In this document: positions 8,829 through 42,095 of the stretch, one piece after another
Position numbering within the stretch: position 1 is the first letter of the stretch
How the letters are laid out: every line of letters begins with the position of its first letter
Assembly (NCBI GenBank): GCA_964527715.1
Contig: CAZGOD010000002.1
Location: 1,736-65,735 of the forward strand
DNA from: an uncultured Thermoplasmatales archaeon
Lineage (GTDB): Archaea; Thermoplasmatota; E2; DHVEG-1
DNA: 64,000 nucleotides
Direction of reading: 5' to 3'
Translations under genes and position numbers: made by a program
The notes under the pieces: generated by a model
Databases searched by the model: none
Told to the model about the DNA's origin: nothing
The model's input: the letters and a program-made list of their open reading frames with translations, nothing else

Positions 8829-8868
8829 AAAATAATAAAAATCAAAACAATAAGTTTGAGGAAACAAG

Positions 8869-10236: not shown

Positions 10237-10266
10237 AAAAAGCATATCTTTGAGAGGAAAAAAATA

Positions 10267-14320: not shown

Positions 14321-14348
14321 TCTAAAAAGCAATATCGAGGGGGAAAAA

Positions 14349-15125: not shown

Positions 15126-15127
15126 TT

Positions 15128-16063
15128 ATGATGAAAGTATTGATCTCTAGCAGGTCTTTTGGCAAGATTAATTCAGGTGCTCTTGAATTATTAAAAAAAA
15201 TTGGATTAAATCCCGTTCTTAACCCTCATGGGAAAAAGTTGTCAGAGACTGAAATACTGGATTTGTTGGATGATGCTATAGGGATTATTGCTGGAACTGA
15301 GAAGATAACAAAAAATATTATTTATCATAATGATAATCTTAAGGTTATTTCAAGATATGGAATTGGTCTTGATAATATTGATTTGAAAGCAGCTAGTGAA
15401 AGAAATGTACTTGTTTTTAACACACCTGAAACACCAAAGATTGCAGTCGCAGAACTTACATTGACATTAATATTAACTCTTTTGAAAAAAATTATAAACA
15501 TTGATAACAACTCAAAAAAAGGATCGTGGAAGCCTGAAATTGGAAATCTTTTAACAGGGAAAACAATAGGAATCATTGGCCTGGGTAGAGTAGGAAAACA
15601 GCTAGTTCAATTCTTGTTGCCTTTTAATGTAAAAATCTTAGTACACGAAATAAAACCAGATAAAAGATTTGTGTCAAAGTATAAGATAGAGTTAACTTCC
15701 TTTGATGATCTAATAAGCAATAGTGACATAATTACTATCCATTGTCCCTTAACTAGACAAACAAAGTACATAATCGGTGAAAAAGAACTATCAAAAATGA
15801 AAAACAATGCTATTTTAATAAATACAGCACGCGGAGGATTAATTGATGAATTAGCGCTTTATAAATTTTTAAGAGAAAAAAAAATTGCAGGTGCTGCAAT
15901 TGACGTTTTTGAAGATGAGCCCAATACAGGAAAATTAAAAGAACTAGATAATGTTATATTAACCCCACATATAGGTACCTATACTATTGAAACGAGAAAA
16001 CAAATGGAAATAGAAGCAGCAGAAAATCTAATAAAAGGATTAAAAAAGGTGAAGATTTTATGA
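15128..16063 (+). CDS. D-isomer-specific 2-hydroxyacid dehydrogenase (SerA-like)
   Basis: SRYGIGLDNID, GLGRVG, HCPL, INTARGG, DVFEDEP, TPHIG. Confidence 0.9.
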   Translation: MMKVLISSRSFGKINSGALELLKKIGLNPVLNPHGKKLSETEILDLLDDAIGIIAGTEKITKNIIYHNDNLKVISRYGIGLDNIDLKAASERNVLVFNTPETPKIAVAELTLTLILTLLKKIINIDNNSKKGSWKPEIGNLLTGKTIGIIGLGRVGKQLVQFLLPFNVKILVHEIKPDKRFVSKYKIELTSFDDLISNSDIITIHCPLTRQTKYIIGEKELSKMKNNAILINTARGGLIDELALYKFLREKKIAGAAIDVFEDEPNTGKLKELDNVILTPHIGTYTIETRKQMEIEAAENLIKGLKKVKIL

Positions 16064-16938
16064 AAGTGCTGATTGTTGGCGGATCTGGATTCCTGGGCAG
16101 CCATACAGCCGATGCATTAACGGAAGCAGGATACAATGTAAAAATTTTTGATATTGTAAAATCTCCGTATCTCCAAAAAGATCAAGAAATGATCGTCGGC
16201 GATATCCTCGATAAAGAAGCTATAGAAAAAGCAGTGAAAGGATGCAACGTTGTATATAATTTCGCAGGCATGGCCAATATAGACGAAGCATATGCTAAGC
16301 CTCTTGTAACCATTGAAAAAAATATTATTGGTAATACAATTATTTTGGAAGCATGCCGTAAAAATAAGGTGGAAAGATTTGTTTTTGCAAGTACCATATA
16401 CGTTTACAGTAAATCTGGTTCATTTTATAGAAGTAGTAAGCAGGCATGCGAATTAATTATTGAAAACTATAACGAGGCTTTTGGGTTGCCATATACTATA
16501 CTCAGATACGGATCATTATATGGCCCCAGAGCAAAAGATAATAACTGGATTCATAAAATTATCAAACAGGCACTAACAGAAGGAAAAATTACACGACATG
16601 GCGATGGAGAAGAAATAAGAGAATATATCCATGTCGGTGACGCTGCGAAGCTTAGTGTAAAAATTCTATCAAAAGAATATGAAAATCTAAATGTAACTAT
16701 AACTGGAAATCAACCAATGAAAATAAAAGATTTACACACTATGATCAAAGAAATTCTTGGAAATAAAATAAAACTAGAATATTTACCGGATGTCTCAAAC
16801 TCTCACTATGAAATAACGCCTTATAGTTATAATCCAAAAGTAGCACAAAAATTAGTTAGTACACAATTTCACGATATTGGACAAGGAATACTAGAGTGTC
16901 TGGCAGAGGTGGATAAAGAATCAAAAACAAAAAAATGA
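16060..16938 (+). CDS. NAD-dependent epimerase/dehydratase
   Basis: GGSGFLG, ASTIYVY, FYRSSK (YxxxK), LRYGSLYGP. Confidence 0.85.
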   Translation: MKVLIVGGSGFLGSHTADALTEAGYNVKIFDIVKSPYLQKDQEMIVGDILDKEAIEKAVKGCNVVYNFAGMANIDEAYAKPLVTIEKNIIGNTIILEACRKNKVERFVFASTIYVYSKSGSFYRSSKQACELIIENYNEAFGLPYTILRYGSLYGPRAKDNNWIHKIIKQALTEGKITRHGDGEEIREYIHVGDAAKLSVKILSKEYENLNVTITGNQPMKIKDLHTMIKEILGNKIKLEYLPDVSNSHYEITPYSYNPKVAQKLVSTQFHDIGQGILECLAEVDKESKTKK

Positions 16939-16958
16939 TACAATAACTCAGGTATATT

Positions 16959-17627
16959 ATGTTTATTTTATTATCCCATAAAATTAACTTAGATACTCCG
17001 ATGTATGGTGGAAAAGAAGGATTTTTATCTAAAAAATTGAGTTCAATAGAGCTAGGAGACTCTGCAAATACATCAAAATGGGAATTTCCTAATCATCTGG
17101 GAACACATATCGATTTTCCGTATCACTTTTATCAAAATGGTCAAACTGTAGATGATTTTCCAGCAGATTTCTGGATCTTTGATGGGAAAAAAATACAGGT
17201 ATTGGAAGTTAATGTGCCTGAAAACAATTTTTTAATTGAACCCGATCACATTGAAAAACACGATTTTAACGTTGATACAGAATTCTTGATTTTAAAAACA
17301 AACATTGGAAAACATCGTAATGAAGAAAAATTTTGGAAATACAATCCAGGATTAAACGTTGAGATGGCAAATTTGATTATTAGAAATTTCAAGAAGATAA
17401 AAGTTATCGGTCTTGATTCAATTTCAATTTCTTCATGGCAACATAGAGATATCGGAAGAATAGTTCACAAAAAAATGCTTGATCCAAAAAATCCTATTTT
17501 ATTTATCGAAGATATGGACTTATCTAAAGTTAGCAAAGATACTGTTTTTAAAATAGTTTACGTTGCACCAATGATGGTAAGTAAATCGGATGGAGGGCCT
17601 TGTACAATTTTGGCTGAGGTGAAATAG
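16959..17627 (+). CDS. Cyclase/kynurenine formamidase (KynB-like) metal-dependent hydrolase
   Basis: HLGTHIDFPYHF (HxGTHxDxPxH), GLDSISI, FIED, GGPCTILA. Confidence 0.85.
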   Translation: MFILLSHKINLDTPMYGGKEGFLSKKLSSIELGDSANTSKWEFPNHLGTHIDFPYHFYQNGQTVDDFPADFWIFDGKKIQVLEVNVPENNFLIEPDHIEKHDFNVDTEFLILKTNIGKHRNEEKFWKYNPGLNVEMANLIIRNFKKIKVIGLDSISISSWQHRDIGRIVHKKMLDPKNPILFIEDMDLSKVSKDTVFKIVYVAPMMVSKSDGGPCTILAEVK

Positions 17628-17629
17628 TT

Positions 17630-18280
17630 ATGAGTAAAATCGATATCCAAATTGATTCATTTCAAGCAATATTGTTTGATTTTGATGGCGTCCTATGTGA
17701 ATGTACGGATGTTAAAACAGAAGCTTTTGCTAAATTGTTTGAATCCTTTGGAGAAGAAGTGGTTAAAAAAGTTGTGGATCATCATGTAAAACATGGTGGC
17801 ATTTCAAGGTATAAAAAAATTAAGTTTTATTATAAAGAATATCTAAACGAGAGAATATCTGATGAAAAGTTAAATGAGCTTGCTCAGAGATTTTCTGAAC
17901 TTGTTGTAAACAAAGTGATTGCATCAGATTGGGTAAAAGGAGCAAAAGAATTTTTAGAAAAATATTACAAAAATATTGATTTATATGTTGTTTCTGGTAC
18001 CCCTCAAAAAGAGCTGAAATTAATCATAGAAAAAAGAAACATGAGAAGATATTTTAAAGGGGTTTTTGGAACTCCTGAGACCAAGCCGGAAATCGCTAAA
18101 CGTCTAATTTCTAATAATAATTACAATAGAGACAAAGTTCTTTACATAGGTGATAGTTTATCCGACTATTATGATTCCCAAAAAGCAGGGATAAAGTTTC
18201 TTGGTAGATTACTAGAAAAGATGACACCAAAATTTCCAGAAACGGTAAAAATCATCCGTGATTTTAACGATGTTTTATAA
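17630..18280 (+). CDS. HAD-superfamily hydrolase
   Basis: FDFDGVL, VVSGT, TKPE, IGDSLSD. Confidence 0.9.
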   Translation: MSKIDIQIDSFQAILFDFDGVLCECTDVKTEAFAKLFESFGEEVVKKVVDHHVKHGGISRYKKIKFYYKEYLNERISDEKLNELAQRFSELVVNKVIASDWVKGAKEFLEKYYKNIDLYVVSGTPQKELKLIIEKRNMRRYFKGVFGTPETKPEIAKRLISNNNYNRDKVLYIGDSLSDYYDSQKAGIKFLGRLLEKMTPKFPETVKIIRDFNDVL

Positions 18281-18363
18281 TAATATATGACTAAATTAGT
18301 GATGTTAAACGACTAACTTGGGGGAAAAAATCCAAGTTATCTATTACTAAAAATACTATATTT

Positions 18364-19053
18364 TTATTCATCTAACTCACATATCCAGTTATTTCTCTTT
18401 CTAAACTTAGTAACACCAGATTCTATGTTTTTTTGATATTTATTAGGTATCTTCCAATCTTTTCCATAGAGGAAACGAACGTGTTTTTCTGCGTTTTTTG
18501 GAATTCTAACTGTCATATCATAAAAATTCACTAATTTCGTCTCAGTCTTTGGAAATATTAAAGTCCTTTTTAAAGAAAAAAAACCTGCAATATCTTCCAG
18601 AGTATTATCTATTATGCTTATATTTATTCTAGATTGGAATAAACGTATGGTTTTAGCTATTATGTTAATTCTAAATGTTTCTTTACGAGCGGGTTTTCCT
18701 CTCACTAAAACAAATTCGTATATATCTACATGAAACGAGGAGTTTGATATAGTAGGAGCTTTGATTTGAATTAGTTGTGTATTATATTTTGAGTTTTCCC
18801 ACCTCAGCTCTACTTCTAGTTTCATTTTTTTAAACTTAGGTAGGAGTTTCTTAACTTTTTCAAAATCAATCACGACAAGATCTATATCATGGTCCCAAGG
18901 TATTATTCTTTTTTCTCTCAGATAACCGAGCAGAGTGCCATATTCTATCCAGTAATCTATTCTGTTTTCCTCTAGTACTGTTTTAATTTTTTTAAGAAAT
19001 TCCACCTTTTTGTGTTCTTCGATATTATCTTCGTTGTCTTTTATACTTCCCAC
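18364..19053 (-). CDS. LicD/fukutin-family phosphotransferase
   Basis: YGTLLGYLRE..IIPWDHDID, VDIY, LYGKDWKIP. Confidence 0.85.
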   Translation of the reverse strand: MGSIKDNEDNIEEHKKVEFLKKIKTVLEENRIDYWIEYGTLLGYLREKRIIPWDHDIDLVVIDFEKVKKLLPKFKKMKLEVELRWENSKYNTQLIQIKAPTISNSSFHVDIYEFVLVRGKPARKETFRINIIAKTIRLFQSRINISIIDNTLEDIAGFFSLKRTLIFPKTETKLVNFYDMTVRIPKNAEKHVRFLYGKDWKIPNKYQKNIESGVTKFRKRNNWICELDE

Positions 19054-19781
19054 TATTTAACTCCTGATATTATAGCAAAGAGCCAATCCATATAAATGTC
19101 ACCATTAAAAATCTTCATATTATAAACTTTTTTGATATATTCAGGACTATCTAAATGCATGTCGTAAATTTTTCTGCATGTCTTTTTACTTAATCCTGAG
19201 TTATCCAGCCAATTATTTATACTTACATTAGGCATTTTATGAATAATAAATTCAATGTTTTTAAAAACACCGTCTTCCAGTAGCTCTATCAGATCATCAA
19301 TGGTATATGTTCTTCGTTTTTCTTTCAATTTAAATACGGCGGTATAGAATTTTCTTGCTCCGGGTGGTGGTATACCTTCCGAAATGACAAATTTACCATT
19401 TGGTTTTAAAATATCATGACAATTTTTTATTGCCGCTTGTTGATCGTTTATATGATGAAAACACATCCTTGCGGTAACACAGTTAAACATATTTGAATTA
19501 AAATCCATACTTTCTGCGTTCATAATTTTATAATCTATGTTTTCGGAATTATGTTTCTGTCTTGCAACATTTAACATGTCTTCTGATATGTCTATTGCTT
19601 TTATTTCCTTACAATACTTTGAAACAGCATTTGCGATAGTGCCTGTTCCTGTACCAATATCGCATACATAGTAACTTGATTTCAAATCACACATCTTGAG
19701 AAATTTTCCCATATATTCTTGTCTGCTAGTCCAATCAAGTTTGTCGTATATTTTTGACCGAGATTCCCATTCATCATGCAT
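19053..19781 (-). CDS. Class I SAM-dependent methyltransferase
   Basis: VCDIGTGTG, AIDISEDML, FHHI...LKPNGKFVI. Confidence 0.85.
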   Translation of the reverse strand: MHDEWESRSKIYDKLDWTSRQEYMGKFLKMCDLKSSYYVCDIGTGTGTIANAVSKYCKEIKAIDISEDMLNVARQKHNSENIDYKIMNAESMDFNSNMFNCVTARMCFHHINDQQAAIKNCHDILKPNGKFVISEGIPPPGARKFYTAVFKLKEKRRTYTIDDLIELLEDGVFKNIEFIIHKMPNVSINNWLDNSGLSKKTCRKIYDMHLDSPEYIKKVYNMKIFNGDIYMDWLFAIISGVK

Positions 19782-19871
19782 GCTAGTTCTCTACCTATAA
19801 TTTTGTTTAAACATATGACTTCTTTCGACCGAATCTCATCATCAATACTTAAGATTTATTATCGTTGGTAG

Positions 19872-20066
19872 GTACTGTCGACTAAAGGATTTTTATCCCA
19901 TCCTATTAATAGCAAGTTTGGTGAACAATCTAGGAGATAGGACACGATCAGAATTGCAAGGAAGTTATTAAAAGAAAAACATATCGTTATACGGGGGGGA
20001 CATCCGTTGAAACCACATCCTATACTATGTTTCTCTATCTCGGTAGACTACCACCGGAAGATGTAA
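19872..20066 (+). pseudogene. Possible decayed C-terminal fragment of a PLP aminotransferase
   Basis: Manual translation ...KGFLSHPINSKFGEQSR*DTIRIARKLLKEKHIVIRGG...FSISVD resembles class I/II aminotransferase C-termini; internal stop, no start. Confidence 0.2.
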
Positions 20067-20199
20067 AAACACACTTTTTCAATAATAGAAAGAAAACGGA
20101 TGAGGTAAATTTTTATTCGCAATTAATTTCCAAATACCATGGACAAAGTTTTTAAAAGGGTTACAATACTGTGTATAATCAAAGTCGAGGTAGATATTT

Positions 20200-21174
20200 A
20201 TGAATATACTTAAAGATAAAGTAATTCTATTGACTGGAGGGACAGGATCATTTGGTAATAAATTTACAGAGGTTGCTCTAAAAGAGCAAAATCCTAACGC
20301 TATAAGAATTTTTTCACGTGGGGAAAAGAAACAGCTAGATATGATGATTAGATTCAACGATGATAGATTACGGTTTTTTATTGGTGATGTAAGGGATAAA
20401 GATAGGCTCCATAGGGCAATGACTGGCGTTGATATTGTGATTCATGCTGCTGCTTTAAAGCAAGTTCCTGCATGTGAATATAATCCAATTGAAGCAGTAA
20501 GAACAAATGTAGATGGAGCTGTTAATGTTATTGATGCTGCCATAGACAATGGGATAGACCGAGTTATGGCCATTAGTACCGACAAGGCAGTTCATCCCGT
20601 GAATCTTTATGGAGCTACTAAGATGACGGCTGAAAAACTTTTTGTTCAAAGTAATTCCTATTCCGGCAAAAAAGATACAAAATTCAGTTGTGTTAGATAT
20701 GGAAACGTAATAGGGAGCAGAGGGAGCGTTATACCGCTTTTTTTACAGCAAAAAAAGAAGGGTGTATTAACTATTACTGACGAAAGAATGACCAGATTTT
20801 GGATAAGATTAGAAGAAGGGGTTAAATTTGTTATTAATTGTATTAACAAAATGAAGGGTGGTGAGGTTTTTATTCCTAAGATTGCCAGTATGAAAATTTT
20901 AGATCTTGCAGAGGCTATCGCACCCGATACAGAGAAAAAAGTCATTGGTATTAGACCGGGAGAAAAACTCCATGAAATTCTTTTAACTGAGGAGGAAGCT
21001 AAGCATAGTAAAGAACTTGATGATTATTTTGTTATAGAACCTGAGCATCCTTTTTGGAGCAGTAAAAATTTAAAGGAGGGAGAGCCTCTACCTGAGGATT
21101 TTCGTTACACAAGTGAAACGAATGATAGATGGTTTTCTAGAGAGGAGTTAACGAAAGTAATTAAGGAATTATAA
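20200..21174 (+). CDS. pseB: UDP-N-acetylglucosamine 4,6-dehydratase (inverting)
   Basis: TGGTGSFG, HAAALKQVPACEYNP, STDKAVHPVNLYGATK, RYGNVIGSRGSV, TDERMTRFW, GIRPGEKLHE. Confidence 0.92.
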   Translation: MNILKDKVILLTGGTGSFGNKFTEVALKEQNPNAIRIFSRGEKKQLDMMIRFNDDRLRFFIGDVRDKDRLHRAMTGVDIVIHAAALKQVPACEYNPIEAVRTNVDGAVNVIDAAIDNGIDRVMAISTDKAVHPVNLYGATKMTAEKLFVQSNSYSGKKDTKFSCVRYGNVIGSRGSVIPLFLQQKKKGVLTITDERMTRFWIRLEEGVKFVINCINKMKGGEVFIPKIASMKILDLAEAIAPDTEKKVIGIRPGEKLHEILLTEEEAKHSKELDDYFVIEPEHPFWSSKNLKEGEPLPEDFRYTSETNDRWFSREELTKVIKEL

Positions 21175-21217: not shown

Positions 21218-21367
21218 AAAATATTACCTTACGGGCAACATTGGGTGGAAGAGAATAATATACAAGCATTGTGTGATGTTCTTAAATCTAACTAGATTAG
21301 TCAGGATCCAAAAATAAAAGTAAATCCAGAAATCATAGCTGAGGAAGTAAGTAATAAGTTAAAGTAA
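21218..21367 (+). pseudogene. Remnant of a pseC-like aminotransferase 5' end
   Basis: Translates to KILPYGQHWVEENNIQALCDVLKSN*ISQDPKI, ungapped with 12/33 identities to the intact PseC N-terminus KNIPYGHQYIDDEDIKEVTNVLQSDWITQGSKI; TAG sits at the conserved Trp. Confidence 0.75.
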
Positions 21368-21398: not shown

Positions 21399-22313
21399 AT
21401 GGAACGAGAGGATTTGAAAGGAGTAATAACTATAATGCCAACTGCCTTCAAAAAGGATGGAGAATTTGATGAGGAAAACTATCGCAAAAATATCGATAAA
21501 ATTTGTAGAACGGGCGTAAAAGGTATAATGACTATGGGAACTACAGGAGAGTTTAGCAATATCTCCTACAAAGAATACGAAAAAATTGTTGATGTGCTGA
21601 TGGATGAAACGTCAGGGAGAATAAAAGTTATTGTAGGTGCTTCTGATGTAAACATAAGTGAAGCTATAAAGAGAACAAACTATGCAGAAAAAAAGGGTGC
21701 TGATGCTGTAATAAATGTGGTTCCCTTTTATCAACCCCTTACACAAAATGAAATCGTAAAATATTTCATGAGATTATCAAGTAAATGTAAAGATATCTCG
21801 ATTCTTGCATACAATAATCATATTACTACAAAGGTCTTGATTTCACCAGATACTTATAAAAAATTATCTAAGATTAAAAATTTCATTGGAAGTAAAGAGA
21901 TAACTACAGATGTTTTTTATTACATGAACATTAGGAGAGCTGCACCAGATCTAGGATTATTACCGGTGGAAGGTTTAATTGTTCCTGCAGCTATGTTAGG
22001 ATGTGAAGGTTTTTTTTCAAGTATAATATTTATGAATCCAGAATTTCAGGATAAAGTGTATGAAGCTTGCAAAAATAAAAAATGGGATAAAGCAATTAGT
22101 ATGCAATATAAAATAGTTGATTTTTTAAGAGATATAGTTGTTCCATTAAGGGAGAAATATAGCGAAATCTCTTTAGCTAAAGCGTTGGTTAATGCTAGTG
22201 GTTTCCTATATGTAGGCCCCCCAAGATTACCATACATACCTGTTACACCTGATGACCAGAAAAAATTACGACATGATTTAGAAAAAATATGCCCATATTT
22301 GATTTACAAATAA
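21399..22313 (+). CDS. DapA/NanA-family class I aldolase
   Basis: MGTTGE substrate motif, LAYN, IGSKE (Schiff-base Lys), GPPRLP. Confidence 0.85.
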   Translation: MEREDLKGVITIMPTAFKKDGEFDEENYRKNIDKICRTGVKGIMTMGTTGEFSNISYKEYEKIVDVLMDETSGRIKVIVGASDVNISEAIKRTNYAEKKGADAVINVVPFYQPLTQNEIVKYFMRLSSKCKDISILAYNNHITTKVLISPDTYKKLSKIKNFIGSKEITTDVFYYMNIRRAAPDLGLLPVEGLIVPAAMLGCEGFFSSIIFMNPEFQDKVYEACKNKKWDKAISMQYKIVDFLRDIVVPLREKYSEISLAKALVNASGFLYVGPPRLPYIPVTPDDQKKLRHDLEKICPYLIYK

Positions 22314-22351
22314 GACTAAATGATTGATGAAAACAAGAATGGAGGAATAAT

Positions 22352-23392
22352 ATGAAAGCTGTTAAAATTGGAGATAAACTGGTTGGTGATGGTCACCCTT
22401 GTTTCATATCAGTTGAACCAGGAGCTACGCATACGGGACTGGAAAGCGCAAAAAAACTGGCTAAAGCCGCAAAAGAAGCAGGCGCAGATGCAGTAAAATT
22501 TCAAACAATGTTAACTGAAGAATTAATGTCACGAGAAGCGCATAAACTAATGATTGAATTTGAAACTAAAGAAGGAAAGAAAAAAGAAAGTATTTACGAT
22601 GCATTAAAAAGAAGAGAATTAACTTTTGATGACTGGAGAGATCTAAAGAAATATTGCGACAAACTTGGCATATTATTTATATCTGCCCCAAGTGGCCCCT
22701 CAACAGTAGACTTGCTTGCAGATATAAATGCTGCAGCAATAAAAGTTTCAAAATCTGATGTTAATAACAGATACTTAATAAGACAAATTGCAAAAAAACA
22801 TCTACCAGTTATTGTAGATGCAAGAGAAAAATTTCAGGATGTAGAAAATGCCATTAGAATATGCGAAGGAGAGGGCAATGATGATGTTATAATAATGCAT
22901 TGTCCATCAGGCTACCCTGCTGAATTTGCGGGTATCCATCTACAAGTTATTCCAGTTATCAAAGGTATTTTTGGAAGGCCAGTGGCATACTCAGACCACT
23001 CTGTTGGAGATTATATGAACTACGCAGCTTTAGGTCTAGGTACAAACATGTTAGAGAAAACAATATCTCTAGACAAATACACTAATGCTGTAGAACATTA
23101 CATGTCATTAGAGCCCGAGGAAGTAAAAGAATTCACAAGAAGAGTAAGAGAAGTTGAAAAAGCATTTGGTAACCCCCGAGTGATTTTTAACTCCAGAGTG
23201 AAAGACGCGAATCGTAGAAGCATAATGGCAAAAAAGAAGATACCTAGAGGTAAAAAAATCGAGATCGATGATCTTACATTTAAACGACCAGGAACCTATA
23301 TTTCCGTGGAGAGATATGAAGAAATAATTGGAAAAAAAGCAACACGCAATATAGAAACTGACGAATTTCTATCTGAACATGATTTTGAATAA
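22352..23392 (+). CDS. Divergent NeuB-family nonulosonate synthase-like protein with SAF domain
   Basis: GADAVKFQT, HCPSGYP, SDH, C-terminal RRSI..KRPG SAF domain; several active-site motifs altered. Confidence 0.8.
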   Translation: MKAVKIGDKLVGDGHPCFISVEPGATHTGLESAKKLAKAAKEAGADAVKFQTMLTEELMSREAHKLMIEFETKEGKKKESIYDALKRRELTFDDWRDLKKYCDKLGILFISAPSGPSTVDLLADINAAAIKVSKSDVNNRYLIRQIAKKHLPVIVDAREKFQDVENAIRICEGEGNDDVIIMHCPSGYPAEFAGIHLQVIPVIKGIFGRPVAYSDHSVGDYMNYAALGLGTNMLEKTISLDKYTNAVEHYMSLEPEEVKEFTRRVREVEKAFGNPRVIFNSRVKDANRRSIMAKKKIPRGKKIEIDDLTFKRPGTYISVERYEEIIGKKATRNIETDEFLSEHDFE

Positions 23393-24341
23393 ATCCTATC
23401 TGGAAAATATTCTCTGCGATCATTACTTAAAAAATGATCAAAACATATTATCAATTAATCCTGGGGAGGGGCACAGTATTAATTCAAAAAATTTTAGAAT
23501 TTTATTAAAAACGGGTGAAAGTTTTTATCTTAAAGTGGTAGATGAATTTAATGCGGACACAAAAACAAAGATTAGGATCATAAATGAATGTTATCATGAT
23601 AATATAAAAGTTCCTGAGATTATAAAAAATAAACAAGGTGAAATAACAACGATCAAGGAAAACAAATTATTTCTTTTGATGAAATATTGTGAAGGGAGAA
23701 GATACAGCTTTAAATTAAAAGAAATACATTCTGCTGCAGAGAACCTTGCTGTTTTAAATGAAGAATTAGGTAAGATAGATACAATCCTAAAAAGGAAAGA
23801 TTTTTATGATGATTTAAGCGGAGGAGATTTGGAGAAAATTAAAAATAAAATAGATAAAAAAGAGTCTTTTAATAAAAAAGTCCACATCCTATGTGAAAAA
23901 CTGCCTCGATTGTATCACAGAATAAATGATATAATTCAACCTTATGAAAATAAAAAACAATTGGTTCATCTTGATTACCATACGCGAAATGTTCTTTTTA
24001 AAAATGATCAAGTTTTGGTTATCTTGGACTTCGACTCAATATTAACATCCTTGGAATTACAATCGGTTGCTTTTGCTTGTGATAGATTCTCAAAAGATAT
24101 CACTGGTTTTATTACATTTATCAAAGGCTATCAGTCACATGGTAGAAATTTTACATCAGATGAACTAAAAATTTTACCTTACTTCGCTGAAAAAGAAGCA
24201 GTTTGTAGAATTAACTATATTTTAAGAAGACATTTTTTCTTTAATGATACAACCTGGAGTTTTGAATTAGATAAACACCTAAAAATTTTAAAAAGAATGC
24301 AGTATGTGGAAAATGAATTAAAGAATATAATTTTACGGTGA
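23379..24341 (+). CDS. APH/choline kinase/homoserine kinase type II-like phosphotransferase
   Basis: HLDYHTRNVLF (HxDxxxxN) and ILDFD motifs. Confidence 0.8.
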   Translation: MILNKSYLENILCDHYLKNDQNILSINPGEGHSINSKNFRILLKTGESFYLKVVDEFNADTKTKIRIINECYHDNIKVPEIIKNKQGEITTIKENKLFLLMKYCEGRRYSFKLKEIHSAAENLAVLNEELGKIDTILKRKDFYDDLSGGDLEKIKNKIDKKESFNKKVHILCEKLPRLYHRINDIIQPYENKKQLVHLDYHTRNVLFKNDQVLVILDFDSILTSLELQSVAFACDRFSKDITGFITFIKGYQSHGRNFTSDELKILPYFAEKEAVCRINYILRRHFFFNDTTWSFELDKHLKILKRMQYVENELKNIILR

Positions 24342-24345
24342 AAAG

Positions 24346-25023
24346 ATGAATTCTGGATATATAAAAAAACAAAATTTAAATTTTCTTATAGACAATACAA
24401 ATAATATCTTAAAATGGGCCTTCAAAAAGTATCCTGGAAAAATATTTGGTACAACAGCTTTTGGTGCAAATGGGATAGTTCTCTTAGATCTAGTTAATAA
24501 AATTGACAAAAAAGTTCCTTTTTATTTTATCAACACTGGCTATCATTTCCGTGAAACTCTAGATGTCTTAGAACACTATAAAAAAAATGGTTTTAATATA
24601 ATTGGAGTTACTTCAAATGTTGATGATTCAAATCATTTACTTGTAGATATGGGCCCAGATGTTTGCTGTAGTATAAATAAGGTTGAACCAATGCGTAAAA
24701 TTCTTCAGGAAAATAAGGGTAATCTGTGGATTGCTGCAGTTAGCCGGGGTCAATCGTCAACCAGAAGGAATTTTAGATTCCTTGAACCACAGGATAATAA
24801 TATTATTAAAATTTGTCCGATGTTGGTTTGGAAAGAAGATGAAATATGGAGTTACATAAACGAAAATAAGCTAGTTTATAACAAACTTTATGATAAAGGT
24901 TATAAAAGTATCGGCTGTGAGCCTTGTACAACAAAAGTCGAAGATGGGGAAGATAGTCGCGCGGGGAGATGGAGAGGTTCGAATAAAGAAGAATGCGGAT
25001 TACAGACAGAATTTGGTAAATAA
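24346..25023 (+). CDS. cysH: APS/PAPS reductase (4Fe-4S APS-reductase type)
   Basis: TAFG, NTGYHFRET, CC..NKVEP, GYKSIGCEPCT, RAGRW, ECGL. Confidence 0.85.
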   Translation: MNSGYIKKQNLNFLIDNTNNILKWAFKKYPGKIFGTTAFGANGIVLLDLVNKIDKKVPFYFINTGYHFRETLDVLEHYKKNGFNIIGVTSNVDDSNHLLVDMGPDVCCSINKVEPMRKILQENKGNLWIAAVSRGQSSTRRNFRFLEPQDNNIIKICPMLVWKEDEIWSYINENKLVYNKLYDKGYKSIGCEPCTTKVEDGEDSRAGRWRGSNKEECGLQTEFGK

Positions 25024-25071: not shown

Positions 25072-26214
25072 ATGAAAAACATACCATATGGACATCAATA
25101 TATCGATGATGAAGATATAAAAGAAGTAACAAACGTTTTGCAATCTGATTGGATCACTCAAGGAAGTAAAATCGAAGAATTTGAAAAAGCTATATCAAAA
25201 TTTACTGGAGCAAAATACACTATAGCTGTTTCAAGTGGAACTGCTGCTTTACATCTAGCTGCAATAGCTGCAGATATAAAAAATAAAGATGAAGTAATTA
25301 CTTCTCCTATAACTTTTGTTGCATCTGCCAACTGTGTTTTGTACTGTGGCGGAAAACCAGTATTTGCTGATATTGAAAACAAAATTCCAAATATAGACCC
25401 AAATCAGATTAGTAAAAAAATTACAAAAAAAACAAAGGCAATAATCCCTGTTGATTACTCAGGTCACCCCTGCGATTTAAAAGAGATTTATGAAATAGCT
25501 GAAAATAAAAATCTTACTGTAATAGAAGATGCATCACATGCTCTTGGTGCAGAATACAAAGGAACGAAAATTGGCTCCTGTCAATATTCAGATATAGGAG
25601 TCTTTAGTTTTCATCCAGTGAAACATATTACAACCGGTGAAGGTGGAGCAATACTAACAAACGATGAGGAATTATATGAAAAACTAACGATGTTAAGGGC
25701 TCATGGCATAACCAAGGAAAAAAACAAATTAGAAAAAAATGATGGACCTTGGTATTATGAACAACAGTTGCTAGGCTACAATTACCGGATTACCGATTTT
25801 CAATGTGCTCTTGGAATTTCACAACTAAAAAAACTTTACAAATTTATTAAAAAAAGAAGAGAAATAGTTGATATCTATAATAAAGAACTAAAGAACTTAG
25901 ATTCGATAGAGTTACCTTTTGAGAAAGAATATGTAAAATCTTCATGGCATCTCTACTATATACAAATTAAAAACCATAACAAAAGAAGAGATATCTTTGA
26001 AAAATTAAGAAAAAATAATATCAGATGTCAGGTACACTACATGCCCGTTTATTTACAACCATATTATCAAAAAATAGGATATTCTAAAGATCTGTGCCCA
26101 AGAGCTGAAGAATTCTATAAAAAAGTGATAAGTATACCAATATATCCAACGATGAAGGCTAGTGAAATAGAATATGTTATAAAAACTTTAAAGAAAGTTT
26201 CAAATGATTATTAA
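25072..26214 (+). CDS. pseC: UDP-4-amino-4,6-dideoxy-L-altrosamine transaminase (DegT/DnrJ family)
   Basis: IPYGHQ, VSSGTAALH, EDASHALGA, FSFHPVKHITTGEGG, GYNYRITDFQCALG. Confidence 0.9.
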   Translation: MKNIPYGHQYIDDEDIKEVTNVLQSDWITQGSKIEEFEKAISKFTGAKYTIAVSSGTAALHLAAIAADIKNKDEVITSPITFVASANCVLYCGGKPVFADIENKIPNIDPNQISKKITKKTKAIIPVDYSGHPCDLKEIYEIAENKNLTVIEDASHALGAEYKGTKIGSCQYSDIGVFSFHPVKHITTGEGGAILTNDEELYEKLTMLRAHGITKEKNKLEKNDGPWYYEQQLLGYNYRITDFQCALGISQLKKLYKFIKKRREIVDIYNKELKNLDSIELPFEKEYVKSSWHLYYIQIKNHNKRRDIFEKLRKNNIRCQVHYMPVYLQPYYQKIGYSKDLCPRAEEFYKKVISIPIYPTMKASEIEYVIKTLKKVSNDY

Positions 26215-26254: not shown

Positions 26255-26959
26255 ATGAGAATAATAAAAGATCCTCTTTGTATAATTCCAGCGAGAGGGG
26301 GATCAAAAAGATTAGAAAGGAAAAATATTACAATATTGGCAGGTAGACCATTATTATTCTACTCTATCGATTCAGCAGTTAAAAGTGAGATTTTTGATAA
26401 AATATGTGTCTCTTCTGAAGACAATGAAATTTTAGAAACAGCAAGGAAATATGCGAAAAACAATAAAATTTTAGTATTAAAAAGACCTGCTGAACTGTCA
26501 GCAGATAACATACAAGTTAAACATGTATGTAAATACCTTTTAGAATACTTCTTTAATAAGGGGATAAAATATACAAGTTTTGGAGTAATTCTTCCAACTA
26601 GTCCTCTAAGAAACCAAGGAGATATTAAAGAAGCATATAAGATATTTAAAGGAAAAAATGCTGAATGTGTTATGAGCATTGTTCCATTTTCTCATCCCCC
26701 TCAAAGAGCAGTTTGGGTAAAAAACAGATATGTTGAACCTTACTTTGGTTTAAAACATATGAAGCAGACTCAAGAACTTGATAAGCTTTATAGACACGAC
26801 GGGGCAATTATTTTTTGTAAAAGTGATTCATTTTTGAAAAATGATGGATTTTACACAAACAAAATTTTGCCGTATTTCATTCCAAAAGAGAGAACAGTAG
26901 ATATAGATTCGCCTTTAGATTTGAAATGGGCTGAGTTTCTATTATCTAAACAAAAATAA
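26255..26959 (+). CDS. pseF: Acylneuraminate/pseudaminic acid cytidylyltransferase
   Basis: IPARGGSKRLERKNI, PTSPLR, DIDSPLD; located in the pse cluster. Confidence 0.85.
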   Translation: MRIIKDPLCIIPARGGSKRLERKNITILAGRPLLFYSIDSAVKSEIFDKICVSSEDNEILETARKYAKNNKILVLKRPAELSADNIQVKHVCKYLLEYFFNKGIKYTSFGVILPTSPLRNQGDIKEAYKIFKGKNAECVMSIVPFSHPPQRAVWVKNRYVEPYFGLKHMKQTQELDKLYRHDGAIIFCKSDSFLKNDGFYTNKILPYFIPKERTVDIDSPLDLKWAEFLLSKQK

Positions 26960-26968
26960 GGTGATAAC

Positions 26969-27994
26969 ATAATAGGTAACATCGCTTTTCGGGTTGATGC
27001 CTCAAAAAAAATTGGCATCGGTCATTTAATGCGTTGTTTAGCTCTATCAGAAGAATTAATGAAGAGGGGAAACGTCTGTTATTTTGTATCAAAAATTGAT
27101 GAAGATGAACTAATTACCAGAATCCAGAAGGCAAATATAATTTCTCAAAAAATAAAAAATGATGCCGACCTAGAAGAGGATTTAGAAGTATTGCTTGAAT
27201 TTTCAGATAAAAATCATATAGACTGGGTTATAACCGATCATTATGACATAGATTCCAGATATACAAAAGAGATAAAAAGAAAAGGATTCAATGTTCTATC
27301 AATAGATGATACATCTCAAATTCACTACTATTCAGATGTAGTTTTGAATCAAAACATTGGTGCTGAAAAACTTAAGTTTTCAGCAGAAAAAGATACAGAA
27401 TTTCTACTAGGGACAGATTACGTTATGATTAGAAATGAATTATTAAAGAAAGATGAAAAAATTGAGAATGAAACTGTTAAAAAAATATTAGTTACAATTG
27501 GTGGAACAGATGATGACAACTTTACTTTAAAAATTTTGAAATATTTGGAATCAATTAACAAAGATATTGAATTCAAAGTAGGGATAGGCCCGTTTAATTC
27601 ATTTTATAATGAAATTTATGAATATTCTAAAACATCAAATTGTAAAATAAGATTAATCAAATCTCCAGTGTGCATGACAGAACTTTATTTAGAATCAGAT
27701 ATAGCCATCAGCGCAGGTGGAAGTTCATGCTATGAATTAGCCTATTTTGGTATCCCAAATATTATTGTAGCTATAGCAGATAATCAGTCAAATATTGCAC
27801 ATGGATTAGACAAAAAAAATGTCAGTATGTTTGTATGTGAAAAAGAGGGATTTAATGAAAAAAAATTAATGCAAAATGTAAATGAATTAATTAACAATCA
27901 TGATTTAAGAATGAATATGATTAGGAATGGCCAACAATTAATCGATGGAAAAGGAAAAAAGCGAGTAGTAGATTTTATGGAGAGATTAAATTGA
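26969..27994 (+). CDS. pseG: UDP-2,4-diacylamido-trideoxy-altropyranose hydrolase
   Basis: IAFRVDASKKIGIGHLMRC lies upstream of the first ATG (27029); TDHY, SIDD, TIGGTD, AISAGGSSCYEL, ADNQ, DGKG; probable start is ATA at 26969 after SD GGTGAT. Confidence 0.85.
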   Translation: MIGNIAFRVDASKKIGIGHLMRCLALSEELMKRGNVCYFVSKIDEDELITRIQKANIISQKIKNDADLEEDLEVLLEFSDKNHIDWVITDHYDIDSRYTKEIKRKGFNVLSIDDTSQIHYYSDVVLNQNIGAEKLKFSAEKDTEFLLGTDYVMIRNELLKKDEKIENETVKKILVTIGGTDDDNFTLKILKYLESINKDIEFKVGIGPFNSFYNEIYEYSKTSNCKIRLIKSPVCMTELYLESDIAISAGGSSCYELAYFGIPNIIVAIADNQSNIAHGLDKKNVSMFVCEKEGFNEKKLMQNVNELINNHDLRMNMIRNGQQLIDGKGKKRVVDFMERLN

Positions 27995-29022
27995 AAAAAG
28001 AAGTTAAAATTGGGGAAAAAATAATTGGCGAAGGATACCCCACATATATAATTGCAGAAATCGGATCAAATCATAACAAGGATAAAAAGATTGCAAAAAA
28101 AATGATTGATGAAGCGGCAAAGGCCGGTGTAGATGCAGTAAAATTTCAAACTTTTAGAGCGGAAAAACTCTACTCTAAGAAAACACCAAAATTTTCAAAG
28201 GATACAGTAAAACCATTCGATTTAATAAAATCTATAGAAATTCCTAGAGAGTGGCATAAAGATTTATTATCATATGCAGGTAATAAAGGGCTAGACTTTC
28301 TCTCTTCACCATTTGATTATGAAGCAGTAGATGAACTCGATAAAATAGGTGTAATTGCTTTTAAAATTGCGTCCTTTGAAATTGTCGATCTTGAATTAAT
28401 TAAATATGTTGCAAAAAAGAAAAAAACTATCATACTTTCTACAGGTATGGCAAATCTCGGAGAAATCGAAGATGCAATAAATACGATCAAATCACAAGGT
28501 AACGATGATATAATTTTAATGCATTGTAATTCTTTGTATCCTACGCCGGTAAATGTAGTAAATCTTAACGCTATTGAAACAATGTATTCAGCTTTTAAAG
28601 TACCAGTAGGTTTTTCAGATCATACTCTTGGAACGAATATTGCAATTGCTGCAGTTACTAAAGGCGCAAAAGTTATTGAAAAACACTTTACATTGGATAG
28701 AACCATGAGTGGGCCAGATCATTCTTTCGCTATTGAGCCACATGAGTTAAAAAAGCTAGTAACTGAGATTAGAGACGTCGAAAAAGCATTGGGTAATGGT
28801 ATGAAACATAGATCTGATGATGAGGATGAAATGTTTGAAAAAGGACGAAGGAGCATTATAGCAGCAATAGATATTCCTAAAGGGATAAGAATTAAGAGGG
28901 AGATGCTTGTAATAAAAAGACCAGGTTATGGGATAAAACCGAAATTTATTGATATTGTTGCTGGAAAAACCACAAAAAAAGACATAAAAGCAGATGAATG
29001 GATCACTTGGGATATGATATAA
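27991..29022 (+). CDS. pseI: Nonulosonic (pseudaminic) acid synthase, canonical NeuB family
   Basis: IAEIGSNH, KFQT, SSPFD, KIASFE, STGM, HCNSLYP, SDHT, EKHFTLD, DHSF; TTG start. Confidence 0.88.
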   Translation: MKKEVKIGEKIIGEGYPTYIIAEIGSNHNKDKKIAKKMIDEAAKAGVDAVKFQTFRAEKLYSKKTPKFSKDTVKPFDLIKSIEIPREWHKDLLSYAGNKGLDFLSSPFDYEAVDELDKIGVIAFKIASFEIVDLELIKYVAKKKKTIILSTGMANLGEIEDAINTIKSQGNDDIILMHCNSLYPTPVNVVNLNAIETMYSAFKVPVGFSDHTLGTNIAIAAVTKGAKVIEKHFTLDRTMSGPDHSFAIEPHELKKLVTEIRDVEKALGNGMKHRSDDEDEMFEKGRRSIIAAIDIPKGIRIKREMLVIKRPGYGIKPKFIDIVAGKTTKKDIKADEWITWDMI

Positions 29023-29540
29023 TGATTAAAAACGCTTGTTTAATGGCAGGTAGACAAGCAGGAGCTATAGGAGTTTTAACTGTTTTGGCTAAAAAAATAG
29101 ATATTTTAGCAATAGTGGCATATGACGAAAATGTAGAAATGGTTTCAAAGGAATTTAAAATACCTCTTTTTGAAACAATCCATAATGGAAAATTTTTAAA
29201 AAAACTTAGTCAAGCAGATTTACTTATTTGCGTTCATGGCAAAGAAATTGTACCAGAAGAAATTCTTAATCTGCCTAAAATAAATAGTATAAACGTACAT
29301 CCTTGCTTATATAAATATAGAGGCAAAAACCCGGTTGAACGTCTTTTAAAAGATGGTAATGCTAAAGCAAGTGTCGGTGTCCACTATATGACTAAAAAAA
29401 TAGATGCAGGAAAAATAATAGCAGAGGAATTTGTTAACGTAAGTGAAATAGAGAACGTTGAAGCTGTATATAATATTCTTTATCCGTATTACTCTTTATC
29501 TCTTTCTATTGCTATAGATAAAATCAATAAGAAGTTATAA
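29022..29540 (+). CDS. N-formyltransferase (formyl-THF dependent, N-terminal domain only)
   Basis: INVHPCLYKYRG.NP and GVHYMT.KIDAGKII formyltransferase motifs; ATG overlaps the pseI stop. Confidence 0.8.
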   Translation: MIKNACLMAGRQAGAIGVLTVLAKKIDILAIVAYDENVEMVSKEFKIPLFETIHNGKFLKKLSQADLLICVHGKEIVPEEILNLPKINSINVHPCLYKYRGKNPVERLLKDGNAKASVGVHYMTKKIDAGKIIAEEFVNVSEIENVEAVYNILYPYYSLSLSIAIDKINKKL

Positions 29541-29544
29541 AGAT

Positions 29545-31206
29545 TTATTTAAGCAACTCAGCTATAACAGCATCGATTTTTTTATTTTCGTTTATTAAGT
29601 AGTTCTGTAAATTTTTTTTGTTCCACTTATTATATTTAGATTTTTTGTCATATTCAATTAAATCAATATAATGGTGTTTAAAATGTTCTAGATAATACAA
29701 ATATCTAGCAACATTTACTTTTTGTTCTTTAGAGATTTTTAGACTTTTAGCTCTATCTATAAGACCAAAATAATTCAATTTATTTTCAGGATATAATAAA
29801 TCCAAAGTTTTATGATATGGGGGAGTGCCAGCGATGATACAAGGAATACCTAAATATGTTAATTCCATACCTACACTAGATCTCCAGACAAGCCCACATG
29901 TGATATATGGATAAAGTTGCTTTACATTAAAGAGTCTTGGATTTAACAATAAAATGTTATCATATTCCTCTATATCACTTTCAATGAAAGATTCTAAAGT
30001 TTGACTTGGTTCTTTTTGGGGTTCATCCGGTCTGGACTCTGAAGGATGCGGTTTAAGAATTAAAAGATTGTCTTTATTTTTAAAAGATTCGACTGTGCTT
30101 TTAATCCAATCTAACATATTCTCGAAAGAGAGTGAGGAGTCATCCCATGGTGTATCATAAAATAAATGAGAAAAAAGAACAAAGACGGATAAATTATTAG
30201 AGTTGTATTTTTCTATTAAATCAATTACTTTTTTCTGATTTATGTTAAATTTTGATGTTTCAAATTTCTTTAAAGATTTATTGAGAGGTTTTATTAGTTC
30301 ATTTTCATCAATATCACTATTTCGAATCCTTTCTAATTCATCTTTTGTTATAATCAATCGATTTTGGACTTTTGAACGTGTTAGATTAGCTAGTGAAATA
30401 TAACTTTCTCTGGAATGATAACCAAAATAATGCATGTAACCTCTAGCTAAATCAATGTACTCAATGTCATTATTTTCTGAAAGGGAATCACATAGCAGTC
30501 TAAAAACACCATTGGGAATGTAACTTGTTTCCCAACCGACGATTTTTATTTTTTTATTTTGTTCTTTAGAATATTTTTTCAAAATTAAAAAATAGTGAAA
30601 TAATAAATCACAACTTTTTATCATTTCACTACATGTAGATATAACATTCTTATCTCTGAAATCAATCTCATATCTTTTGTATAAAGATTGTAAAGTATTT
30701 CTGATAACCGGAAAGAAATTCACATTACTGACTTCAATTTTTTCTTTTTCATAGTTAATTTTCCACTTAAAATTTAATTCAGTGTTTTTACAATCATTAT
30801 AAATTACATATTTAGATTGCCTGTTATATAAAGAGAAGCTTATTTTCGCATTATCAACAATTAATTTAGGTAAATATGATTCGGAAATATACTTTCTAAG
30901 GATAAAAGATTCATTTCTTCCAGAATTAAAAATCATACGAGATATCTTTGGAGAATAATTTCTGATGATGCCATCCCTAAACAAAAAAGAGCAGGGATAG
31001 CCTTTTTTTGATAATGCATGAGCTGTTAGAAGGTAAAGTTTTTTATAAAACTGACTACCACGATGACTGAAAAGAAATATTTTATCGGATCTTTCAATAT
31101 CCAATTTTGGTATATCCTCAAGTAATTTACGGGTTAAAAAATTGTCATTTATCATTTGAACTTTATGTTTTAAAAAGGAAAAGTGACTGCTCATGGTTAC
31201 CATCAT
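29545..31206 (-). CDS. Capsule-polysaccharide biosynthesis protein (KpsS/Capsule_synth-like), candidate ulosonate transferase
   Basis: ETSYIPNG, HLFYDT, LILKPHPSE, SSVGMELTYLGIP. Confidence 0.55.
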   Translation of the reverse strand: MMVTMSSHFSFLKHKVQMINDNFLTRKLLEDIPKLDIERSDKIFLFSHRGSQFYKKLYLLTAHALSKKGYPCSFLFRDGIIRNYSPKISRMIFNSGRNESFILRKYISESYLPKLIVDNAKISFSLYNRQSKYVIYNDCKNTELNFKWKINYEKEKIEVSNVNFFPVIRNTLQSLYKRYEIDFRDKNVISTCSEMIKSCDLLFHYFLILKKYSKEQNKKIKIVGWETSYIPNGVFRLLCDSLSENNDIEYIDLARGYMHYFGYHSRESYISLANLTRSKVQNRLIITKDELERIRNSDIDENELIKPLNKSLKKFETSKFNINQKKVIDLIEKYNSNNLSVFVLFSHLFYDTPWDDSSLSFENMLDWIKSTVESFKNKDNLLILKPHPSESRPDEPQKEPSQTLESFIESDIEEYDNILLLNPRLFNVKQLYPYITCGLVWRSSVGMELTYLGIPCIIAGTPPYHKTLDLLYPENKLNYFGLIDRAKSLKISKEQKVNVARYLYYLEHFKHHYIDLIEYDKKSKYNKWNKKNLQNYLINENKKIDAVIAELLK

Positions 31207-41070: not shown

Positions 41071-41079
41071 ATTTTATTT

Positions 41080-42069: not shown

Positions 42070-42095
42070 GTTTTTTTGTTCTCCTCTTGTTTTTT

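Follow-up and report, generated by a model that had tools for sequence, protein, structure and literature searches.

RESULTS

Gene content of the locus

The DNA analysed here (the window) is a stretch of 64,000 nucleotides from an uncultured Thermoplasmatales archaeon (contig CAZGOD010000002.1, positions 1,736 to 65,735), and an archaeal host is supported by its genes for archaeal FEN-1, a GGGP-type prenyltransferase, PurP and Taw2. Our subject is a cassette of four genes at window positions 21399-25023 within a locus for the biosynthesis of pseudaminic acid (Pse). Gene identities were assigned to the open reading frames (ORFs) of the window by Pfam and NCBIfam profile scores against curated cut-offs. 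The locus runs on the forward strand and begins with pseB, encoding the inverting UDP-GlcNAc 4,6-dehydratase (20200-21174; TIGR03589, 502 bits against a cut-off of 408). It is followed by a fossil of the 5' end of pseC of about 34 codons (21218-21319), recognised by its translation, with TAG at a Trp position of PseC. The cassette itself, also on the forward strand, comprises a class I (Schiff-base) aldolase of the dihydrodipicolinate synthase (DHDPS) family (21399-22313; PF00701, 173.6 bits), a paralogue of NeuB and PseI that we call neuBx-A (22352-23392; PF03102 and the SAF domain PF08666), a small-molecule kinase of the aminoglycoside phosphotransferase (APH)/choline-kinase fold (23379-24341; PF01636, weak at 33 bits) and a thioredoxin-type CysH with [4Fe-4S] ligands (24346-25023; TIGR00434, 202 bits against 165.1), whose predicted activity is that of an adenosine 5'-phosphosulfate (APS) reductase. 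Downstream on the same strand lie a resident copy of pseC (25072-26214; TIGR03588, 527 bits) and then pseF, pseG, pseI and a formyltransferase gene (26255-29540; TIGR03584, TIGR03590, TIGR03586/03569 and PF00551). The true PseI, assigned by TIGR03586/03569, occupies 27991-29022, and its end is overlapped by the formyltransferase of 180 aa (28998-29540; PF00551). The gaps within the cassette measure 38 nt, -14 nt (an overlap) and 4 nt, and 48 nt separate cysH from pseC. The ORFs and gaps confirm what a sequence-only reading of this DNA had described: four co-oriented genes flanked by pseB and pseC, the last three tightly spaced or overlapping.

neuBx-A and the kinase form the conserved core

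The neuBx-A protein stays below the equivalog cut-offs of both NeuB (256 against 399.65 bits) and PseI (193 against 340.25 bits); the true PseI of the locus scores 338 and 382 bits on these two models. Its listed relatives form at least 120 protein clusters, each at least 49% identical. A pattern scan with one genome per species yielded 80 loci, and ORF calling with BLAST mapping resolved two clades, A and B, which together hold about 70 genome loci. Clade A, whose members share 45% identity or more with the window protein, is monophyletic (support 0.995), clade B is 35-44% identical to that protein, and the two group together (support 0.973) apart from canonical PseI and NeuB. The kinase gene stands immediately 3' of neuBx, usually overlapping it, in 26/26 clade-A loci compared with 0/41 clade-B loci (Fisher p = 4e-19). 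Judging from this gene order, the conserved core is neuBx-A translationally coupled to the kinase, and the kinase is its obligate partner. The four genes had been taken as the functional unit; this has to be narrowed to the pair found in all 26 loci, the aldolase being present in one shallow subclade. Archaeal carriers of clade A are found among Nitrosopumilaceae, Micrarchaeota, Aenigmatarchaeota and Methanosarcinales and include Ca. Nitrosotalea devanaterra, while the bacterial carriers belong to Patescibacteria, Omnitrophota, Verrucomicrobiota, Pirellulales, Dehalococcoidia and Caenarcaniphilales and include one deltaproteobacterium.

Residues of neuBx were numbered on NeuB of N. meningitidis (NmNeuB). 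Both clades retain E25, K53, Q55, K129, Y186, S213, H215, E234 and R314, the last being invariant, and both carry the replacements N29T, E134D, S154D, H236T, D247E and I248H; S132K, M157R and N158E are confined to clade A. The metal ligand His215 is thus kept and the second one, His236, is replaced: position 236 is Thr in 26/26 clade-A and 47/47 clade-B sequences and His in 42/42 canonical ones. S132 and S154 of NmNeuB are residues that we take to touch the phosphate of phosphoenolpyruvate (PEP). The TIM barrel and the C-terminal SAF (antifreeze-like) domain are both present, and the AlphaFold model (mean predicted local distance difference test, pLDDT, 94.6) superposes on NmNeuB 1xuu with a template modelling (TM) score of 0.86. 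Farther fold matches are the synthases of 3-deoxy-D-arabino-heptulosonate 7-phosphate (DAHPS) and 3-deoxy-D-manno-octulosonate 8-phosphate (KDO8PS), which act on phosphorylated aldoses; metal-independent forms of KDO8PS exist. In Proteobacteria, SAR11, Desulfobacterota and other groups, the clade-B protein (neuBx-B) is encoded in pse loci that are canonical in other respects, in the order pseB-pseC-neuBx-pseF and with no additional partner genes; it shares H236T, S154D and D247E with clade A and has neither the clade-A Lys and Arg nor the kinase and CysH. A third NeuB-family gene, of the canonical type, lies directly 3' of cysH in locus L001 (11757-12818), a locus without the DHDPS-family aldolase.

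In the kinase, the HxDxxxxN and DFD motifs are intact; H197, D199, N204 and D217 are conserved across 32 sequences, and the latter three are invariant. All top structural matches of its model (pLDDT 94.9) are APH-fold kinases. The nearest are homoserine kinase II (2ppq; TM 0.72, 16% identity), YtaA of B. subtilis (2q83) and NahK (4ocj; TM 0.75), an anomeric N-acetylhexosamine kinase, with an overall range of TM 0.67-0.75 and 13-16% identity. The likeness to homoserine kinase is structural only, since the protein scores 40 bits against a cut-off of 271 on the type II model NF003558. Because of these nearest structures we regard it as a kinase that would act on a small molecule, possibly a sugar; the fold alone does not reveal which.

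The aldolase is a cassette-specific addition

The aldolase matches PF00701 over its full length and has the Schiff-base Lys, the catalytic Tyr and GTTGE; its GTTGE, AYNN and GSKE align to DHDPS motifs. It had been named DapA, a name that has to be dropped: the protein reaches 138.8 bits on TIGR00674 (cut-off 206.15), and the DapA Arg (R138 in E. coli, 'YNVPSRT' in DHDPS 2yxg) aligns to Thr in its 'YNNHITT'. Neither is it NanA, as it misses both cut-offs of that enzyme (101 against 382 bits on TIGR00683 and 127 against 281 on NF003164) and, by eye and without a tool alignment, reads PVEG at what we take to be the GxDE sugar-binding motif of NanA. The cut-off for 2-keto-3-deoxygluconate aldolase is likewise missed. 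Close homologues (at least 68% identity) number 15 among 5.8 billion proteins, with the next protein at 45%; those on long contigs are all on cassette contigs, and the aldolase is confined to the shallow neuBx-A subclade nearest the window. This distribution identifies it as a late, lineage-specific addition and a cassette-specific subfamily.

The protein at 45% identity (P0150) adjoins an Ldh_2 gene on a short contig and was uninformative as an outgroup of the subfamily. A family of about 370-430 aa (fam9) was rejected as a stand-in for the aldolase; it is equally common in kinase-less clade-B loci. One fam9 member has a faint PP-loop (diphthamide synthase) match, and in many loci genes of about 207 and 260 aa adjoin fam9, which we assume, without a check against a family library, to be of the HisH/HisF type; because of these neighbours and the PP-loop match, fam9 is read as an amidotransferase of the PseA/WbpG type.

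The four-gene order recurs in distant microbes

The same four genes in the same order are found in five other loci from distant microbes (L002, L003, L127, L128 and the P0005 contig), with protein identities of 53-85%, so that the co-conservation proposed for this neighbourhood withstood the search. Three of these, all metagenome contigs, also share the pseB and pseC flanks: L127 reads fam18-pseB-DHDPS-neuBx-kinase-CysH-pseC, L128 pseB-DHDPS-neuBx-kinase-CysH-pseC, and the P0005 contig pseB-methyltransferase-DHDPS-neuBx-kinase-CysH-pseC-pseF. L002 and L003, from two Elusimicrobiota metagenome-assembled genomes (MAGs), have the order pseI-DHDPS-neuBx-kinase-CysH-ABC exporter, and an Aenigmatarchaeota MAG (L012) shows pseC-DHDPS-neuBx before its contig ends. 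Compared with L127 and L128, the window proteins are 74-75% (DHDPS-family aldolase), 54-57% (kinase) and 67-75% (CysH) identical; the neuBx of the window and that of L127 share 85% identity, and the best match of the L128 neuBx is that of L004 (81%). Kinases of this family are rare: at the sensitivity used, the search found 14 of them among 5.8 billion proteins. On this comparison of gene orders, the four-gene association is more than chance.

APS reductases recur beside the core

The cassette CysH is the sole strong PF01507 match in the genome to which the window belongs (1.54 Mb, 91% complete). It resembles the CysH of B. subtilis, M. tuberculosis and P. aeruginosa by a full-length match, by its ligands VCC and CEPC (CC...CxxC) and by its C-terminal catalytic Cys. 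Unlike these assimilatory enzymes, it resides in a glycan locus of a genome in which no NIR_SIR sulfite reductase was found by a search that finds it in 11/14 control genomes, and it ends on ECGLQ for ECGLH. A metagenome relative at 96% identity also ends on ECGLQ, and ECGLH is present in every other cassette orthologue.

Genes of sulfate reduction or activation are adjacent in 13/26 clade-A compared with 0/41 clade-B loci (p = 4e-7), and the reductases differ in kind. Apart from the window, the bacterial-type Fe-S CysH with ECGLH is encoded in the P0005 contig, L001, L002, L003, L009, L013 and L014, and also in L127 and L128, which were fetched later and stand outside the census of 26 loci. 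An archaeal-type CysH with GECGIH is found in L023, L024 and L026 (L024 passes the cut-off of 154 with 185 bits, L023 is just under the cut-off, and L026 was assigned by homology); the Patescibacteria locus L023 bears a Sat-CysC fusion too. L042 has CysD and a CysH fragment. In a bacterial flagellin glycosylation island (L007/L008) the place is taken by a dissimilatory-type AprA (NF005331, 846 bits against 557) together with an AprB domain joined to the N-terminus of neuBx (best match TIGR02060, E = 2e-17). Taken from these neighbourhoods, three non-homologous types of APS or 3'-phosphoadenosine 5'-phosphosulfate (PAPS) reductase have been recruited beside the pair of neuBx-A and kinase, a convergent association. 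What their chemistries share is the conversion of APS or PAPS to sulfite, and nothing else. Since the genome has no detected sulfite reductase, sulfite would be a dead end unless the locus uses it; as it could not be reduced onward, it is probably a building block. We also considered the CysH-like protein as a nucleotidyl-transferase, as a cytidylyltransferase occupies this place in L004, and rejected it with the catalytic Cys and the Fe-S ligands conserved and AprAB standing there elsewhere.

APS could be supplied by Sat (42096-43220, reverse strand; PF01747 and PUA_2), which lies 17.07 kb downstream of the end of cysH, in agreement with the distance of about 17 kb reported before. Sat had been invoked as the source for the cassette; it can provide APS, but it is part of a separate PAPS sulfation operon (40459-43220, reverse strand; PF01747, PF01368 and PF01583) and is not dedicated to the cassette. 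This operon holds Sat, a DHH phosphatase and the APS kinase CysC (40459-41070, reverse strand; PF01583), and further a sulfotransferase (PF00685) and an SLC13 transporter (PF00939).

The cassette was horizontally acquired

A 225-nt gap 3' of pseB codes for about 34 codons of the PseC N-terminus, with TAG at the conserved Trp. The fossil equals the PseC N-termini of relatives of the same family at 16-19 of 34 positions, and the resident PseC at 13 of 34. In three genomes of this family (G072, G101 and G044) pseC directly abuts pseB with no gene between. The window PseB is 74-79% identical to the PseB of same-family relatives (74-78% for these three genomes); the resident PseC is 74-78% identical to PseC of the cassette contigs L127 and L128, compared with 58-66% to that of the family relatives. 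Moreover, the kinase occurs in one of 197 genomes of the class, which is the window's own, and is missing from the other 196. From these comparisons we conclude that the cassette is foreign to this genome and was horizontally acquired, and that the resident pseC was probably co-acquired along with it. The fossil, the pseB-pseC order of the relatives, the PseC identities and the distribution of the kinase all suggest that the native pseC was displaced by recombination with a donor segment of cassette and pseC, leaving a scar. That the cassette has been spliced into the pse locus, as first proposed, is therefore upheld by the fossil that was kept and by the relatives in which pseB abuts pseC.

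Neighbouring genes

A cytidylyltransferase gene always adjoins the pair of neuBx-A and kinase. In the pse locus of the window no GNAT-type PseH is present, and because the formyltransferase overlaps pseI and a GNAT PseH is lacking, a 7-N-formyl Pse is suggested; a gene of the same formyltransferase family is located 3' of pseG in L009. Downstream, on the reverse strand, lies fam18 (29545-31206), a gene for 553 aa with no Pfam or NCBIfam match. Genes on the flanks of the module in L004 and L127 share about 50% identity with it; weaker homologues occur upstream of pseB in the family relatives, and other clade-A loci have a different neighbour family with a Capsule_synth domain (PF05159). We regard fam18 as a candidate pseudaminyl or ulosonate transferase that would travel with the module. 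It is followed by an exporter of the MsbA/PglK-like ABC type (31418-33217, forward strand; PF00664 and PF00005), which is recurrent next to the module, with homologues in L002, L003, L009, L017 and L021.

Upstream of the pse locus, six genes on the forward strand (13550-18280) encode a class II aldolase of the HpcH/HpaI type, a KdsB-like transferase of cytidine monophosphate (CMP) (NF009905, 310 bits, above cut-off), a PGDH-like 2-hydroxyacid dehydrogenase, a short-chain dehydrogenase/reductase (SDR), a cyclase-family protein and a HAD phosphatase. In the deltaproteobacterial MAG locus L013, four of the six stand directly upstream of the pse/neuBx-kinase-CysH genes (69%, 45%, 60% and 39% identity), and the set partly recurs in L009. 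From this recurrence it may be functionally linked to the module, for example in making a second CMP-activated acid. Divergent from pseB, the reverse strand (18364-19781) carries genes for a LicD-family protein and for a class I methyltransferase. LicD enzymes transfer phospho-alcohols from CDP-activated donors, and this one could be related to the cassette kinase; LicD was not found in other module loci. Farther upstream, a polysaccharide locus (7980-11199, forward strand) encodes a protein of sulfatase fold (PF00884), a weak sulfatase-like ORF and a protein with a glucuronyl C5-epimerase domain, a content that would point to a heparosan-like, sulfated-glycan chemistry in an archaeon. In L002, the region 3' of the cassette (13477-20620) holds genes for a sulfotransferase, two PALP enzymes (threonine-synthase/cysteate-synthase-like), a GHMP kinase, an ATP-grasp ligase and a Lyase_1 protein, which may form a sulfo-amino-acid side branch also using sulfite.

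DISCUSSION

In this study we describe a cassette that we interpret as a horizontally acquired, accessory branch of nonulosonate biosynthesis that consumes sulfite at a Pse locus, a reading to which we give an even chance. A C-sulfonated product is likely, by a chemistry that we infer, as we do sulfite as the substrate, the enzyme forming the C-S bond and the identity of the product. In the proposed sequence of steps, CysH would turn APS from the nearby Sat into sulfite, and the kinase would put a phosphate ester on a hydroxyl of a sugar-pathway intermediate, as a leaving group or as an anionic handle. Sulfite would then displace or add at the activated position, at or beside neuBx-A, in which the PEP-binding residues are kept, one metal ligand is missing and a new Lys and Arg would suit an anion. 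The fusion with AprB and these two acquired residues are our reasons for placing the C-S bond at or near this enzyme. The product might be a 3-deoxy-2-ulosonic acid bearing a C-sulfonate, or else a sulfonated derivative of Pse; the sequence-only reading had suggested a second, unusual ulosonic acid or an acyl substituent, and either of these, like a modified Pse, would be a possible product. A single CMP-transferase, PseF, would activate it, as is proposed because a cytidylyltransferase is always adjacent to the pair; fam18 or a KpsS-like transferase would attach it and the ABC transporter export it. The weakest step is that of the aldolase, which could act on a 2-keto-3-deoxy acid in a Schiff-base-assisted elimination or addition, or in an extra aldol step. 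A precedent within the DHDPS family is KdgD, with an elimination at C4.

That no characterised nonulosonate pathway is known to combine these genes, as the sequence-only reading had stated, agrees with our literature search: full-text searches on nonulosonic or pseudaminic acid together with PAPS reductase, sulfonate or sulfite gave no description of such a module. The only sulfonated flagellin glycan retrieved was the taurine-containing type B glycan of C. difficile, whose genes are unrelated. The cassette resembles the PseB-C-H-G-I-F pathway of Campylobacter and Helicobacter in that it lies within a locus of pseB, C, F, G and I and in that neuBx has the PseI/NeuB fold and keeps most of the residues contacting PEP and sugar. 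It differs from this pathway by the NeuB paralogue additional to PseI, by H236T, by a kinase that is unneeded there and by the formyltransferase that replaces PseH. A kinase next to a NeuB-family synthase is also known from the animal sialic acid route (GNE/NANS/NANP) and from the Kdn-9-phosphate synthase and phosphatase of Bacteroides, which set a precedent for a phosphorylated aldose. In contrast to the animal route, the cassette kinase has the APH and not the ROK fold, the Pse context is a 6-deoxy one and there is a link to an APS reductase. SQD1, SqdB and Agl3 use sulfite from APS or PAPS for a C-sulfonated sugar of surface glycans, such as the N-glycan of Sulfolobus; they are SDRs of about 390 aa, whereas the cassette proteins come from other families. 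The SDRs of the window, in a scan of this stretch without a SQD1-specific model, have 292, 313 and 324 aa and match LegB, GalE and PseB best. ComA (YitD in B. subtilis) offers a PEP-binding TIM barrel that forms a C-sulfonate from sulfite, with a dedicated sulfite source; it has no sequence homology to the cassette proteins and comes without the SAF domain, the kinase partner and the link to a nonulosonate locus. By these likenesses, the module would be a hybrid that joins the kinase/NeuB logic of animal sialic acid synthesis to sulfonation as in SQD1/Agl3 and ComA, and a member of neither.

If the kinase is taken as the key, it might instead phosphorylate a hexose, which neuBx-A would condense with PEP into a phosphorylated nonulosonate, in the manner of the ManNAc kinase and NANS of animals and of the Kdn-9-phosphate synthase of Bacteroides. 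The new Lys and Arg would then bind the phosphate, and CysH would be loosely associated, serving for example local sulfite or PAPS homeostasis beside the sulfation genes. The sugar kinase NahK among the nearest structures of the kinase (TM 0.75), the phosphorylated aldoses taken by the fold relatives DAHPS and KDO8PS, and HAD phosphatases nearby (window 17630-18280 and L010) all speak for such a route, as do the half of the loci without an adjacent reductase and the six genomes without a detected CysH. However, it leaves unexplained the three independent recruitments of APS reductases, the AprB::neuBx fusion and a CysH in a genome without a sulfite reductase; furthermore, the hexoses of the Pse pathway are 6-deoxy, so the usual site of 6-phosphorylation is gone. 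We regard it as unlikely.

Another possibility is that neuBx-A acts as a functional analogue of ComA: from PEP and sulfite it would form phosphosulfolactate or another C3 sulfonate of this kind, to be joined to Pse or the glycan as a substituent, sulfolactyl-type or phospho-linked, outside the nine-carbon skeleton. The addition of sulfite to PEP, as by ComA in coenzyme M biosynthesis, is the best-precedented enzymatic formation of a C-S bond, and neuBx-A retains its PEP-binding residues with an altered aldehyde-activating metal site. The AprB::neuBx fusion would suggest a direct transfer of sulfite. The upstream 2-hydroxyacid dehydrogenase, HAD phosphatase and second CMP-transferase, which recur beside the module in L013, would fit as well, as would the LicD-family gene (18364-19053). 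Yet the SAF domain, Arg314 (the N-acyl binder in NmNeuB) and the sugar-contacting Q55 and Y186 are all conserved, the obligate kinase has no obvious role when PEP brings the phosphate, and no cassette protein has a ComA match in Pfam or NCBIfam. In our view the addition to PEP is quite improbable. Least of all do we credit a fortuitous clustering of a housekeeping assimilatory CysH with a NanA/NanK-like salvage pair of aldolase and kinase: CysH does score like a normal cysH product, the DHDPS family includes NanA lyases and NF003164 matches in part, but this explanation is largely refuted by the genome without a detected sulfite reductase, by an order kept across phyla and domains, by the lack of a transporter or NanE-type gene, by an aldolase under the NanA cut-offs and, by eye, without GxDE, and by the absence of the cassette from all 196 class relatives, because of which it cannot be housekeeping.

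Several points weigh against the sulfite-consuming branch itself. To our knowledge there is no biochemical precedent for a NeuB-family enzyme that uses sulfite, and the whole argument is drawn from gene neighbourhood and residue patterns. The CysH of the window departs from the canonical ECGLH, although its catalytic Cys is retained. Only half of the clade-A loci have an APS reductase as a neighbour; of 13 searched clade-A genomes in which no CysH adjoins the pair, seven encode one elsewhere, and none was detected in the other six, which are MAGs of unknown completeness in which AprAB was not searched for. Because of these six, sulfite may be optional. In L002, moreover, the pyridoxal phosphate enzymes, the GHMP kinase and the ATP-grasp ligase could be the sulfite users of that locus. 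The link to sulfur that had been proposed from the DNA alone therefore keeps a strong comparative support in the three reductase types, the AprB::neuBx fusion and the lack of a detected sulfite reductase, and is weakened by the loci, about half of the total, that lack a neighbouring reductase.

In its most specific form our proposal is that neuBx-A is a hitherto unrecognised NeuB-family enzyme using sulfite and that it and the kinase, with sulfite handed on from an APS reductase, make a new class of C-sulfonated nonulosonic acids on surfaces or flagella, which we put forward tentatively, as possible rather than probable. As a culturable carrier exists in Ca. Nitrosotalea devanaterra, the prediction is directly testable. 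Nonulosonic acids such as sialic, legionaminic and pseudaminic acid shape microbial surface recognition; the substituents known on them are acyl, amidino, methyl and O-sulfate groups. With a dedicated branch fed by sulfite, a sulfonate bound to carbon, or a related group, would join this list, and a large uncharacterised family of NeuB paralogues in two clades would be defined. If this were true, such sugars would be carried by many uncultured archaea and bacteria, among them DPANN, Thaumarchaeota, CPR, Elusimicrobiota, Planctomycetes and Verrucomicrobia, and a role would be found for the 'orphan' APS reductases in small genomes without sulfite reductase or sulfate assimilation.

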